DNA of 64,000 bases from an uncultured Enterobacterales bacterium (GCA_964615375.1 CAZTOW010000012.1:1-64000), one strand, 5' to 3'; shown: positions 34,686-56,070, counted from the first letter of the stretch. The notes: generated by a model from the letters alone, not told the origin. Translations and numbers: made by a program.

Positions 34686-34743
34686 TGAAGCGGACATAAT
34701 CTGTCCGCGCCAATTTTGAAGCGGACAGATTATGTCCGCATAC
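34686..34743. promoter_or_regulatory. tandem pair of 7-bp-stem hairpins (TGAAGCGGACA-N5-TGTCCGC) forming a composite inverted repeat
   Basis: Seen directly: GCGGACATAATCTGTCCGC and GCGGACAGATTATGTCCGC, 12 nt apart. The loops are reverse complements of each other. Lies 55 bp upstream of the 34799 ORF. Confidence 0.5.
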
Positions 34744-34798
34744 GCCGTCAGCACAGGAATGGCCTTGCTATGTTGAGTGGGTCAGAAATGGAGGCCCG

Positions 34799-35212
34799 AT
34801 GTCCTGCTCTCTCGCCACTCTCGTCCTCTCGCTGATCTTCGGCTTCGACAGCGCCATCGTCTGCGGGATCGGCTCCTGCGATCTGCCCGCGGAGCTGCAC
34901 CTGGAGAACGAGCGTTACGACACCCTCCCCGCCGACGAGTGGTCCTGGATGAACCACGATCTCGCGCTGGCCCGCGTGGCGCTGGCCAACGGTGATCACA
35001 ACCGCGCCGAGAACATCGGCCGATGGCTGGAGCATGCCATCGACCTGCGCATGGACGCCATGGTCGACGGGCGCGGGAAGCGCCGGGTCAAGGCCCTGAA
35101 CCGCGCGGTGAACGGGATCATCTCCGGCTCTGCCATCCGCACCGGCGGGATCGCTGGGTTCAAGGGGAGCTCTTCCGAGATCCCCGTGCATCGCCCGGGC
35201 GCTCAGGGCTGA
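34799..35212 (+). CDS. hypothetical small secreted/membrane protein
   Basis: GGAGG RBS; hydrophobic N-terminus; 137 aa; no recognised domain. Confidence 0.5.
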   Translation: MSCSLATLVLSLIFGFDSAIVCGIGSCDLPAELHLENERYDTLPADEWSWMNHDLALARVALANGDHNRAENIGRWLEHAIDLRMDAMVDGRGKRRVKALNRAVNGIISGSAIRTGGIAGFKGSSSEIPVHRPGAQG

Positions 35213-35225
35213 GCTGCGCGACGGC

Positions 35226-35450
35226 TCAGTCCTTCGGCTCCTCGCTCGCCGGCTTCGGCGGGCGCGGCCGGGAGCGATCATAGCGGCGCATCAGCTCGTC
35301 CACCGCGTCCGGGGCGCGGTCGACGGGCGCCTCCTCGGCGGCGGCCTTCGCGGCGCGGGCGGCGCGGGTCTTCCTCAGGCGGCGCGCGAGCTCCAGCGTG
35401 AGGCGCTCCGCGTCGTCGATGGGCAGCTCTGTAGATCGCTTCTTCGGCAT
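35226..35450 (-). CDS. small highly charged hypothetical protein (74 aa) downstream of the AmmeMemoRadiSam radical SAM gene
   Basis: Begins MPKKRSTELPIDD; 17-nt gap after the radical SAM stop. Lys/Arg/Glu/Ala-rich. Confidence 0.45.
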   Translation of the reverse strand: MPKKRSTELPIDDAERLTLELARRLRKTRAARAAKAAAEEAPVDRAPDAVDELMRRYDRSRPRPPKPASEEPKD

Positions 35451-35469
35451 CACGGGCTCCGAGGGCAGA

Positions 35470-53071: not shown

Positions 53072-53111
53072 GACCTCTGAAGGGTATCAGAGTTCCACCT
53101 GGCCGGCAGGC

Positions 53112-54929
53112 TCAACTCGGGCGCAGGCGGCGTGCGTCGCCCACGCGCTGCGTGATCCGGCGCGCGTCCAGCCATTCGAGCAGCGGGATGGCGTGGCGCC
53201 GGGAGAGCCCCGTCAGGTTCTTGAAGTCCGTGGGCTGGAGCAGCTCGTGCTCGGCCAGGAAGGTCCGCACCTGCGCCTCGAGCGCGTCCAGCGCCTCCTG
53301 GTGCAGCACGCGGTCGCTCACGCGCGCCACCACCCCGCGCTCCAGGAGGAGCTGGAGCACGTCCGTGGCCGCCGCCACCGCCTCCTCGAAGCTGAGACCC
53401 TCCAGCTTCGCCGCGGCGATCCGCTCGGTCAGCCGGTCGATCTGGGCCTGCTCGGCGGGCGTGGGGCGCACCTGGAATTCGGGGAGCCGGATGCGCGGGC
53501 CCTCCACCATCAGGCGCCCGGCCGCGGCGAGCTGATCGATGAGGGCGTCGAACGCGCGCTCCGAGAGGTGACCCAGCGGGCCGCGGCGCAGGTCGCGGCG
53601 CGGCGCACCGCCCACCAGGGGGTGCTCCCGATGCCACTGACCGAGCTCGGAGACCAGGGCTCCCTCCAGGGCCTCGGCGCGCGCGGGGTCCAGCACCCGG
53701 TCGCCGAGCTGCCGGCCGCTCACGCCGCGGCGCGCGGCCTCCTCCGGGCTGAGCCCGCTCTCCCCGGCGCGGCGCAGCAGCACGCCCCGGTCCCCAGCCA
53801 TGAGCTGGCGCAGCTCCTCGGCGGCGCGGGCGTGGTCGCGCTTGCGGGCGCGTGGGGCCCAGGGGTCCAGCACCACGCCGCCGCCCAGGGTGGTGGCGGG
53901 GGAGGGGCGGCGCAGGATGAAGCGGTCGCCGGGGAGCGCGACCAGCGGGCTCTGCAGCCGGAGCTGGATGAGCGCGCTGCCCCCGGGCTCCAAGAGCTCC
54001 TGGTCCAGCACGCTGAGCACGGCGAGCTCCTCGCTGGTGCCCAGCAGGATCCGCACCTCGGCGCCCTCCTCCAGCAGGGGGGCGTCCGGCAGGTGGTGGT
54101 AGCGCGCGTCCAGCACGCTGGTCAGCTCCACCTCGCCCGGTCGCACCACCTCCTGCCCGCGGGCGAGGTCGTCCCGCTCCACCCCCGCCAGGTTCAGCGC
54201 CGTGCGCAGCCCCGGCCGCGTCTCGCTCACCGCCTCCCCGTGGACCTGCACCCCGCGCACCCGGGCCCGGAGCCCGTCGGGCAGGATCAGCACCTCCGCC
54301 CCGTCGCTCAGCGTGCCCGAGCGCACCGTGCCCGTCACCACCGTCCCGAAGCCGCGCAGCACGAAGGCGCGGTCGATGGGCAGGCGGAAGGGGCCCTGGG
54401 CCGAGCGCGATGTGAGCGGGAGCTGGTCAAGTTGCTTGACTAATTCATCTAGCCCACGAGGCTCCGGCCCGACGGCGGTGGCGACGATGGGGGCGCCCTC
54501 CAGGAAGGTGCCGGCCAGGGTGTCGGCCAGCTCCAGGCGGGCGAGCTCCAGCAGCTCCTCGTCCACGAGGTCGGCCATGGTCAGCACCACCACCCCGTGC
54601 TGCACGCCCAGCAGCTCGAGGATGGCCAGGTGCTCGCGGGTCTGGGGCATCACGCCCTCCACCGCGGACACGCAGAGCATGGCCGCGTCCAGCCCGCTGG
54701 CCCCCGCGATCATCGTGCGCACCAGGCGCTCGTGCCCAGGCACGTCCACGAAGCTCACCGTGCGCCCGCTGGGCAGATCCAGGTGGGTGAAGCCGAGCGC
54801 GATGGTGATCCCCCGCGCCTTCTCCTCGGGCAGGCGATCCAGGTCCACGCCGGTGAGCGCGCGGATCAGGCTGGTCTTGCCGTGGTCGATGTGCCCGGCG
54901 GTGCCGATGACGAGGGGGGCGGAGCGCAC
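53112..54929 (-). CDS. selB: selenocysteine-specific elongation factor SelB
   Basis: GTPase domain (IGTAGHIDHGKTSLIRALTG, DVPGHERLV, NKAD-equivalent) plus four winged-helix C-terminal domains. GTG start. Confidence 0.9.
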   Translation of the reverse strand: MRSAPLVIGTAGHIDHGKTSLIRALTGVDLDRLPEEKARGITIALGFTHLDLPSGRTVSFVDVPGHERLVRTMIAGASGLDAAMLCVSAVEGVMPQTREHLAILELLGVQHGVVVLTMADLVDEELLELARLELADTLAGTFLEGAPIVATAVGPEPRGLDELVKQLDQLPLTSRSAQGPFRLPIDRAFVLRGFGTVVTGTVRSGTLSDGAEVLILPDGLRARVRGVQVHGEAVSETRPGLRTALNLAGVERDDLARGQEVVRPGEVELTSVLDARYHHLPDAPLLEEGAEVRILLGTSEELAVLSVLDQELLEPGGSALIQLRLQSPLVALPGDRFILRRPSPATTLGGGVVLDPWAPRARKRDHARAAEELRQLMAGDRGVLLRRAGESGLSPEEAARRGVSGRQLGDRVLDPARAEALEGALVSELGQWHREHPLVGGAPRRDLRRGPLGHLSERAFDALIDQLAAAGRLMVEGPRIRLPEFQVRPTPAEQAQIDRLTERIAAAKLEGLSFEEAVAAATDVLQLLLERGVVARVSDRVLHQEALDALEAQVRTFLAEHELLQPTDFKNLTGLSRRHAIPLLEWLDARRITQRVGDARRLRPS

Positions 54930-54932
54930 GCT

Positions 54933-55880
54933 TCAGGTCCTCGTGAGCCTGCGGAAGACCTCTTCCAGGTTGCTGCGCTCCAGCGTGAGCTCCAGCAGCA
55001 CGAGGCCCTGGTCCACCGCGAGCTGGAAGAGGGCGGGGCGCAGGTCGGCGCGGGCCAGGACCTCCAGCGCCATGTGCGCGGGGTCCTCGTCCTCCAGCGT
55101 GCGGACGCGCTCGACGTCGGTCAGGGCCTCGACGGCTTGGACCACCGCCTCGCGCCGGGGCGCCACCTTGCCGGGGGCGTAGGTGACGCGCATCAGGCGC
55201 CCGCCCTGGTCGCGCAGGGTGACCTCGCCCGTGGGGCCGTCGGCCACGATCTCGCCCTTGTTGACGATGATCACGCGGTCGCAGGTGGCCTGGACCTCCG
55301 ACAGGATGTGCGTGGACAGCAGCACCGTCTTCTTGCGGCCGATCTCCCGGATCAGGTTGCGGATGTCCACGATCTGGTTCGGGTCGAGGCCGGTGGTGGG
55401 CTCGTCCAGGATGAGGATGCTCGGGTCGTGCAGCAGGGCCTGGGCGAGCCCGGTGCGCTGGCGGTAGCCCTTGGACAGCGTGCCGATGGCCTGGTCCATG
55501 CGGTCGGTGACGCCGCAGAGGCCGGCGACGCGCTCGATGGCGGTGGCGCGCTCGGCCGAGCCGAGGCCGCGGACCCGACCCACGAAGTCCAGGTAGTCGC
55601 CCACGCGCATCTCGGTGTAGAGCGGCGCGCTCTCCGGCAGGTAGCCGATCTTCGCGCGGGCCTCGATGGGCTCGTCCAGCACGTCGTGGCCCTCGATGGC
55701 GGCCTGCCCCCCGCTCGGCGTCAGGAAGCCCGTCAGGATCTTCATCGCCGTGGACTTGCCCGCGCCGTTGGGGCCCAGGAAGCCCACGACCTCGCCGTGC
55801 TCGACCGAGAAGCTGATCCCGCGCAGCGCGACGTGGTTCCCGTAGGACTTTCGGAGCTCGCGGACCTCGATGGCGGACAT
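54933..55880 (-). CDS. ABC transporter ATP-binding protein (ABC-2 type), no adjacent permease
   Basis: Walker A GPNGAGKST; signature LSKGYRQR; Walker B ILILDEP. The ORF-track 762-aa frame continues upstream antisense to the Rpn gene and is rejected beyond 55880. Confidence 0.85.
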   Translation of the reverse strand: MSAIEVRELRKSYGNHVALRGISFSVEHGEVVGFLGPNGAGKSTAMKILTGFLTPSGGQAAIEGHDVLDEPIEARAKIGYLPESAPLYTEMRVGDYLDFVGRVRGLGSAERATAIERVAGLCGVTDRMDQAIGTLSKGYRQRTGLAQALLHDPSILILDEPTTGLDPNQIVDIRNLIREIGRKKTVLLSTHILSEVQATCDRVIIVNKGEIVADGPTGEVTLRDQGGRLMRVTYAPGKVAPRREAVVQAVEALTDVERVRTLEDEDPAHMALEVLARADLRPALFQLAVDQGLVLLELTLERSNLEEVFRRLTRT

Positions 55881-56050
55881 GGGGACCCTCAGGCAGGACC
55901 ATAACACCCGATGACCGGCGGAGGCGGGGCGGGGGAGGGCTGCGATAGCTCCAGGAGGGCACATGGTCGCTGCTCGGCGCGGTCCTGGCCTCCGTCGGGC
56001 GCTCCCGGCGTTCGAGGCGAGCTCTCCGCACCTGAACACACTCCCGGTAG

Positions 56051-56070
56051 CCGGACATTTTCTGTCCGCC
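56051..56070. promoter_or_regulatory. hairpin motif CGGACA-TTTTC-TGTCCG upstream of the Rpn-family gene
   Basis: Same stem as the 34690/34721 hairpins; 41 bp upstream of the 56112 ATG. Confidence 0.45.

Follow-up and report, generated by a model that had tools for sequence, protein, structure and literature searches.

Regulators with a WYL domain are emerging as main SOS-independent switches for DNA-damage and anti-phage responses. To our knowledge, WYL operators are known for only a few regulators (DriD, DdaA, SiwR, PafBC and BrxR/CapW), none of them in Myxococcota. We examined a set of palindromes built on GGACA-N5-TGTCC in a 64,000-nucleotide stretch of DNA catalogued under an uncultured Enterobacterales bacterium (GCA_964615375.1, CAZTOW010000012.1:1-64000; the window in what follows), and compared them with the operators of that family. 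The DriD box of Caulobacter crescentus, ATACGAC-N7-GTCGTAT, has conserved G2, C4, G12 and C14 positions and an AT-rich spacer (PMC10853764; also PMC9186387). The spacer is AT-rich in 66 of the 68 boxes of DriD homologues, the box lies about 17 nt before the start codon of those homologues (PMC10853764), and the DriD site overlaps the -35 position (PMC13004042). DdaA of Moraxellaceae is a homodimeric activator of DNA-damage and anti-phage genes with winged helix-turn-helix (wHTH), WYL and WCX domains (wHTH-WYL-WCX), and its box, CGWCA-N5-TGWCG, is found about 50 bp 5' of transcription starts (PMC12392091). The SiwR operator of Mycobacterium smegmatis is a palindrome of 19 bp lying between the -35 and -10 elements, its GGA at -26 (PMC10693628), for which the probes of the electrophoretic mobility shift assays give the sequence TAGGACAGTTCCGGTCCTA (PMC10693628 supplement). 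Finally, the PafBC element is read by a heterodimer, and only together with RNA polymerase (PMC10853764).

The palindromes of the window are very likely the operators of a transcription factor. Site 1, the predicted distal operator (34690-34708, GCGGACATAATCTGTCCGC), is a 7-5-7 palindrome, site 2, the predicted proximal operator (34721-34739, GCGGACAGATTATGTCCGC), is the best conserved of the sites, and site 3, also a predicted operator, is found at 56051-56069 (CCGGACATTTTCTGTCCGC). An earlier, sequence-only reading had proposed these three palindromes (GCGGACATAATCTGTCCGC at 34690-34708, GCGGACAGATTATGTCCGC at 34721-34739 and CCGGACATTTTCTGTCCGCC at 56051-56070), and their coordinates were borne out. 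The same reading had called the motif recurrent and placed it before unrelated genes, and the counts show it to be non-random: GGACA-N5-TGTCC has exactly 3 matches in the 64-kb window against 0.07 expected, all of them intergenic, and none of 100 shuffles reached 3. Relaxing the loop to 3-9 nt gave no extra GGACA/TGTCC match in the window. The degenerate form GGWCA-N5-TGWCC is represented by 4 matches there (0.12 expected), again all intergenic. The fourth match, at 18307, is a possible weaker site of low confidence (18306-18322, CGGACAGGAAGTGACCG); an S8 peptidase gene begins 11-12 nt 3' of it with a TTG codon, an aminotransferase gene runs divergently on its other side, it is not kept in the relative L367, and its spacer is GGAAG, unlike the AT-rich spacers elsewhere (TAATC, GATTA and TTTTC at sites 1-3). 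Sites 1 and 2 are exact reverse complements of each other and, with the AT-rich linker of 12 nt between them (34709-34720, GCCAATTTTGAA), they form a 24-2-24 near-palindrome; the two sites are 31 bp apart, that is, three helical turns. One oriented 18-mer, GCGGACAGAnnATGTCCG, fits all three sites. GC content around the sites is 0.60-0.62 versus 72.6% overall, and the AT-rich elements stand out. Logan short-read contigs of the same organism (L001-L005, L370, L371; SRR147875xx / SRR147931xx) break at or beside the palindromes (L004 starts at window position 34675 and L005 at 34783, while L370 and L371 end around the site 3 region), and the inverted repeats may be the cause of this assembly fragmentation.

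A heparinase II/III-like gene (32698-34662) precedes sites 1 and 2, and an open reading frame (ORF) of 137 aa on the plus strand (34799-35212) follows them; downstream of this ORF, an AmmeMemoRadiSam cluster is found on the other strand. The ORF encodes a small secreted protein that carries a signal peptide and in which C22, C27, H34, W50 and H53 are invariant, and by sequence comparison its gene appears to be the best-conserved target of the predicted operators. The corresponding family comprises 29 representatives (P0261-P0289) of about 120-200 aa, with a signal peptide ending in A-x-A-C, an invariant C-x4-C, H and W-x2-H, and an NHDLALAR motif as hallmarks, and with a charged Pro/Arg/Glu-rich C-terminal tail in many members. 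The small secreted protein had no match in Pfam, NCBIfam or PADLOC, and its AlphaFold 2 model is a helical bundle (predicted local distance difference test score, pLDDT, of 83) with no significant fold match in the PDB. This family of small secreted Cys/His helical proteins is previously undescribed.

Orthologous loci were retrieved via the neighbouring heparinase-like protein. The two-site layout was kept 5' of the small-ORF orthologue in L365/L366 and in L368/L369, where the neighbour gene is 71% and 59% identical, respectively. L365 has GGCGGACATTTTTTGGCCC as its distal site, whereas L368 has GCGGACAGTTTTGTGTCCG, whose spacer is 6 nt long; the proximal site is GCGGACAGTTTATGTCCGC in L365 and GCGGACAGATAATGTCCGT in L368, with invariant arms and a varying loop. 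Spacers among the sites of the relatives are AT-rich as well (GTTTA, GATAA and TTTTT). Both relatives also keep the AT-rich linker, the ribosome-binding site and an invariant GCTATGTTGAG that stands on the plus strand at 34767-34777 and is identical in the window, L365 and L368. Across the orthologues, it is the sequence of the arms that is conserved, while the loops vary; one arm has decayed, and one spacer differs in length. In L367 (62% identity) a NUDIX gene replaces the small ORF, and the motif is absent too, while a small-protein orthologue of 47% identity has a one-mismatch site, GGACAGATTCTGGCC, about 190 nt 5' of its start. Two details that the sequence-only reading had emphasised do not extend to the relatives: the loops of sites 1 and 2 are mutual reverse complements in the window, a relation not kept in the relatives, and the TGAA before the sites is not conserved in the relatives either, being only loosely kept (as GAA/GAT) before the proximal site.

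Site 3 is located in the divergent region between an operon of an ATP-binding cassette (ABC) ATPase gene and selB on the minus strand and, on the plus strand, an Rpn-family PDDEXK_2 gene followed by ttcA. The Rpn-family gene (56112-57050, plus strand; PD-(D/E)XK nuclease, PDDEXK_2 / TIGR01784) is a strain-specific insertion between site 3 and ttcA, and the ABC transporter ATPase gene (54933-55880, minus strand) has a GldA-like score below the family cut-off. The distance of 41 nt from site 3 to the Rpn ATG (56112), given by the earlier reading, was confirmed, and the site does lie upstream of the Rpn gene as claimed, but this association is probably secondary, as the Rpn gene is a recent insertion beside a pre-existing site. 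In the closest relative, L372/L373 (ABC ATPase 89% identical), ttcA and the ABC gene are divergent across 160 nt and the Rpn gene is absent; the counterpart of site 3 in L372 is AGCCA-AAAAC-TGTCC, followed by CTTACCGG. In L378 (DNA 96% identical), the palindrome is kept, an Rpn remnant is present, and a 1.8-kb beta-helix gene is inserted on the other side. Because L372, which lacks the Rpn gene, has counterparts of the sequence on either side of site 3, the site is older than the Rpn insertion and belongs to an older ttcA/ABC divergent promoter region; the Rpn ORF, together with its ribosome-binding site, was inserted in the interval from site 3 to ttcA. For the same reason, the candidate explanation of site 3 as part of an Rpn cassette was ruled out. 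There were no Rpn paralogues with the same upstream motif to compare, the closest homologue being 43% identical. The ABC ATPase gene, which starts 171 nt from site 3 on the opposite side, is an alternative target of the site.

The intergenic region between ttcA and the ABC ATPase gene is a strain-variable hotspot (window 55881-57110; L372 9842-10000; L378 1-2700): the window has an intact Rpn gene there, L378 has the Rpn remnant and the beta-helix gene, and L372 has neither. The Rpn gene itself contains a perfect 21-nt tandem repeat (56868-56977; 5.2 copies, 100% identical) encoding (GEKAALQ)n in a C-terminal coiled coil, and L378 differs across this stretch. Homologues of the ABC ATPase at 64-70% identity have source names such as 'MAG: Myxococcota bacterium' (MAG, metagenome-assembled genome), and since these relatives carry Myxococcota names, the window probably derives from an uncultured member of Myxococcota.

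The identity of the factor is suggested by the operators of known WYL regulators. When the DriD, DdaA and SiwR operators were aligned on their centres, they had in common with the window motif, which reads GC-GGAC-AGATTAT-GTCC-GC in the same alignment, a core of G-x-C, 7 nt and G-x-C with an AT-rich centre. The variant sites, in a small sample, keep G2/C4/G12/C14 (TGGCC in L365 and L379, TGACC at 18307, AGCCA in L372); their differences are confined to X3/X13 and the outermost base, where the DriD and DdaA boxes are themselves degenerate. On these grounds, and on the adjacency to WYL genes described below, we consider it somewhat probable, at slightly better than an even chance, that the regulator belongs to the wHTH-WYL family and is of the DriD/DdaA/SiwR kind.

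We also scanned viral, genome and metagenome collections, the latter two with an 18-mer and a 23-mer; the genome and metagenome figures given below are among the matches listed. A YafY-like gene was found in 8 loci among at least 120 genome matches of GCGGACAGAnnATGTCCG, and in 7 of those 8 loci (L128, L203, L205, L209, L213, L220 and L238) the palindrome lies 1-25 nt from the start of that gene. A YafY profile built from six proteins of palindrome-adjacent genes also matched one viral contig (L124) and two metagenome contigs (L320, L347) with the same adjacency, and the two proteins scanned (L220, L213) both combine the Pfam domains HTH_11, WYL and WCX. At least two of the seven palindrome-WYL loci are from Actinomycetota (L128, L203). 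The palindrome at the YafY-type loci is often extended to ATTGCGGACA-N5-TGTCCGCAAT. In the Streptomyces copies (L131, L166, L197, L206), TAGCTT, as a -10 element, is found about 10 nt further on and is followed by a near-leaderless gene for an AlkZ-like crosslink-repair glycosylase. The recurring (ATT)GCGGACA-N5-TGTCCGC(AAT) looks like the mark of an uncharacterised actinobacterial regulon related to SiwR/PafBC, and GCGGACA-N5-TGTCCGC has the look of an autoregulatory box that is widespread among the YafY-type regulators of Actinomycetota. In L203 and L213 the divergent neighbour is a DinB-like gene, as judged by visual inspection of the sequence.

The remaining collection matches are mostly chance occurrences, terminators after TGA stops, or the coding motif QCGYCQSGQIMS. 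The string GCGGACAGATCATGTCCGC also arises as coding sequence for (Q)CG(Y/F)C(Q/T)SGQIMS (e.g. L129, L140, L154, L156, L170, L171), read as the [2Fe-2S] domain of the small subunits of molybdo-enzymes, and such genes give false positives in genome-wide operator scans. Separately, a viral contig of 14 kb (L082, IMGVR_UViG_3300023176_003188) contains 10 copies of SGGACA-N5-TG(T/A)CCG between positions 1392 and 10320, each followed about 15-20 nt on by a conserved, -35-like (T)TTCTCTTGACT/TTTACT; these repeats look like a phage-wide cassette of hairpin or operator plus promoter.

The surroundings of the sites offer several candidate promoters. All three sites share a layout of palindrome, two nucleotides and an AT-rich hexamer: CAATTT (34711-34716, plus strand) comes 2 nt after site 1, CAAAAT (34713-34718, minus strand) comes 2 nt after site 2 read on the minus strand, and CATTTT (56072-56077, plus strand) comes 2 nt after site 3, towards the Rpn gene. 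Each of these -10-like hexamers may serve as a -10 element, and with the palindrome-NN-CAWTTT arrangement of sites 1 and 3 the operator would span roughly -33 to -15, a geometry intermediate between those of SiwR and DriD. Alternatively, CATACG (TATAGT in L368), which overlaps the end of the proximal site, would be SiwR-like if it acted as the -10. A third candidate, the (extended) -10 TATGTT at 34769-34774, would centre sites 2 and 1 near -51 and -82, respectively, and would be DdaA-like. The candidate -10 elements therefore give operator centres of -24, -21 or -51, and all sites lie in 5' intergenic regions.

In the mechanism that we propose, a homodimeric winged-helix factor encoded outside the window would bind the palindromes as double-stranded DNA, this factor most likely being of the wHTH-WYL-WCX type represented by DriD, DdaA and SiwR. 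Each of its monomers would recognise a single GGACA arm, with two arginines of the recognition helix contacting the G and C of G-x-C, and the AT-rich centre of 5 nt would lie between the two monomers. The two sites spaced by 31 bp would flank the AT-rich linker 5' of the gene for the small secreted Cys/His protein, while the single site in the ttcA/ABC divergent promoter region would now also drive the inserted Rpn nuclease gene. By analogy with known family members, the WYL domain would sense single-stranded DNA or another nucleotide signal, upon which the regulator would recruit RNA polymerase to promoters without a -35 element, or would release repression.

Several observations weigh against assigning the palindromes to a WYL regulator. 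The motif similarity amounts to about 4-6 informative bases plus spacing. The YafY profile, run over the 64-kb window and some 55 kb of the relatives' contigs, detected no WYL/YafY-like gene, and no cognate regulator or autoregulatory box was found there; the partial annotation of the window lists a single regulator, a TetR gene about 12 kb from the sites, and the motif does not occur near that gene. The adjacency to WYL genes comes from other phyla, and the matches in Polyangia and deltaproteobacterial MAGs adjoin unremarkable genes without a DNA-repair theme, being probably due to chance. None of the three candidate -10 elements passed a scan for the sigma-70 consensus. Finally, the main target encodes a secreted Cys/His protein with no obvious part in DNA damage or defence.

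Operators of another dimeric factor are the rival explanation that best survives, although we regard it as doubtful. Such a factor could be a metal or redox sensor of the MerR type, whose dyad fills the promoter spacer, or a member of the GntR, PadR or XRE families, and it would control a secreted Cys/His protein that possibly binds metal. All the evidence for a protein-binding operator applies equally to a non-WYL factor, and the lack of a nearby WYL gene and the invariant C-x4-C...H...W-x2-H of the target protein also count for this reading. The proximal dyad begins at the last base of a -35-like TTGAAG/TTGATG, with TATAGT 17 bp on in L368, so that TTGAAG and a 19-bp dyad are compatible with a MerR promoter, in which the dyad is centred in an over-long spacer of 19-20 bp between -35 and -10. 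At 19 bp, though, only weak -10 candidates are present, and a better one at 17 bp is confined to L368, the 17-bp candidate being poor in the window (CATACG) and in L365 (CATTCG). MerR regulators are usually encoded adjacent to their operator, in divergent orientation, but neither a MerR gene nor any other regulator gene adjoins the sites, the TetR gene being the only regulator in the partial annotation. For a MerR system it would also be unusual to have another site upstream and yet another at an unrelated locus. A search of the full-text literature with the half-site strings returned no described operator, and the WYL operators are a specific match, agreeing in core, spacing, AT-rich centre and overall length.

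A role of the palindromes as RNA hairpins, namely as a terminator for the heparinase-like gene and as stem-loops in 5' leaders that stabilise or attenuate mRNAs, is very unlikely. Site 1 does begin 28 nt after the stop codon at 34660-34662, and the fold of the interval 34663-34798 is much more stable than that of shuffled sequence (z = -4.7 for one strand and -5.3 for the other), but the fold of site 3 is no better than shuffled (z = -0.6 and -1.5). Site 3 was flagged as terminator-like, with a hairpin followed by CCTCATTTTG; this site, though, has no upstream gene on its own strand to terminate, sites 1 and 2 were not flagged in the terminator scan, and the T4 runs start 5-6 nt after the stems. 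Among three orthologues, the small hairpins have 0 pairs with a compensatory change and the distal helix is 67% paired; the long helix of 19 bp is 79% paired and has one pair changed on both sides, a value that 347 of 500 shuffles also reached. Moreover, one relative has a broken distal hairpin and another a distal hairpin whose loop differs in length, identical arms at unrelated loci are not expected of terminators, and Rfam gave no match at gathering score and nothing credible at E<=1. The arm sequence is kept while the loops drift and no compensatory change is found, which therefore indicates a protein-binding site rather than an RNA structure. Of the two roles that had been offered for the motif from the outset, a dimeric-regulator site and an RNA leader, the former is thus favoured (orthologous sequence conservation, the match to WYL operators and the adjacency to WYL genes) and the latter is not (no covariation, a broken hairpin, no Rfam match). 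The idea of a selenocysteine insertion sequence, suggested by a UGA followed by a hairpin and by selB in the window, was also ruled out, the three TGA triplets being in different frames and two of them in non-coding DNA that separates divergent or consecutive genes.

A repetitive extragenic palindrome of the kind found in bacterial interspersed mosaic elements (BIME) or a miniature inverted-repeat transposable element, which a transposase (the neighbouring Rpn 'putative transposase', for instance) may have mobilised, is the least probable explanation of all, for although the copies are extragenic palindromes, one pair is inverted as in BIME and one copy stands in a strain-variable hotspot beside the Rpn gene, there are only 3-4 copies in 64 kb, motif loci from other genomes carry a single copy (ten of them were examined for additional relaxed copies, and none turned up), neither the viral scan nor the matches listed for the genome and metagenome collections include a high-copy family, the pair keeps its position 5' of the same gene down to 59% identity of the neighbour gene, which fits constraint and not insertion, the flanks of site 3 are ancestral and the Rpn ORF is the inserted part, and the closest Rpn homologue is 43% identical, with no close paralogue in the database.

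Three other features of the window were noted apart from the palindromes. A protein of 1203 aa encoded at 48345-51956 (minus strand) contains about 22 copies of a 33-aa Asp/Cys-rich unit, C-x-DG-x-D-x-DGDG-x-x-D-x-x-DPDC, with a period of 99 nt. Two other secreted proteins have GE and DT dipeptide repeats with a period of 6 nt (8850-8927 and 19964-20020). Finally, an HNH_2 endonuclease gene was found at 5566-6606 (plus strand), matching the PADLOC models for HNH / type II restriction enzymes (E 1e-27).

The damage response of Myxococcus xanthus is partly LexA-independent, and its two WYL regulators are uncharacterised. In that species, the adjacent wHTH-WYL genes MXAN_1359/1360 rise in a lexA mutant and with mitomycin C (PMC12288472), and so the WYL family is present in Myxococcota and is damage-linked there. 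Returning to a WYL regulator as the reader of the palindromes, we tentatively propose, as a possibility well short of even, that an uncultured Myxococcota lineage has a homodimeric WYL regulator, akin to DriD and DdaA, which senses single-stranded DNA and binds the box GCGGACA-N5-TGTCCGC, that its most conserved target is a secreted Cys/His helical protein and not a repair gene, and that its boxes capture inserted cargo such as the Rpn nuclease. If true, this would be the first defined WYL regulon in Myxococcota, and it would link a DNA-damage or phage signal to an extracytoplasmic effector. A defined box would make the regulon readable from any genome of the lineage and would provide a testable handle on the secreted protein family. 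Should the regulator come from another family, the finding would be an ordinary operator.

Among the known systems, BrxR/CapW resembles the locus in having palindromic operators that are bound by WYL dimers before toxic or defence genes (PMC9122601, PMC11662680), and these regulators control cargo of the type seen here, a nuclease gene within a strain-variable hotspot. That likeness is set by description and not by operator sequence, and the BrxR/CapW regulator is encoded directly upstream of the genes it represses, whereas none is here. The PafBC -26 element of the RecA-NDp promoter of Actinobacteria (tTGTCRgtg-N8-TAnnnT) has a half-site, TGTC(C/R)G, that resembles the window motif, and the Streptomyces copies, with their TAGCTT and near-leaderless AlkZ-like gene, recall it further; in contrast to the full palindromes of the window, it is a single non-palindromic half-site.

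The DriD box is closer, being a palindrome with G2/C4/G12/C14, an AT-rich gap of 7 nt and the same inner GACAG...CTGTC, and it is found in promoters without a usable -35 element. The DriD regulon includes the small membrane protein DidA and the endonuclease BapE, a loose parallel to the small secreted protein and the Rpn nuclease of the window. The two differ in their flanks (CG/ATA in DriD versus GG/GC here) and in position, the DriD box being centred near -29 (counted from the published didA promoter) versus the candidate centres of -24, -21 and -51 here, and DriD autoregulates from the box before its own start, while no such gene was seen in the window. DdaA has the same 5-5-5 geometry and an inner G-W-C-A / T-G-W-C identical to that of the window motif, the position of its box upstream of transcription starts fits the centre at -51 predicted here if TATGTT is the -10, and its regulon mixes repair and defence genes. 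It differs in the outermost base (C/G there versus G/C here), in the pairing of sites at a spacing of 31 bp here and in phylum, and its regulator and regulon are experimentally defined, whereas those of the window motif are predicted.

The SiwR operator differs from the window motif in its outer bases (TA there versus GC here) and in its imperfect right arm (GGTCC), and the SiwR regulator gene adjoins its target. Nevertheless, the two palindromes have the same length of 19 bp and the same GGAC-N7-GTCC core, and the SiwR operator abuts the -10, as the CATACG/TATAGT candidates after the proximal site would do here. Actinobacterial loci such as L213, finally, have a YafY-like gene divergent from a DinB-like gene, as is the case for siwR.

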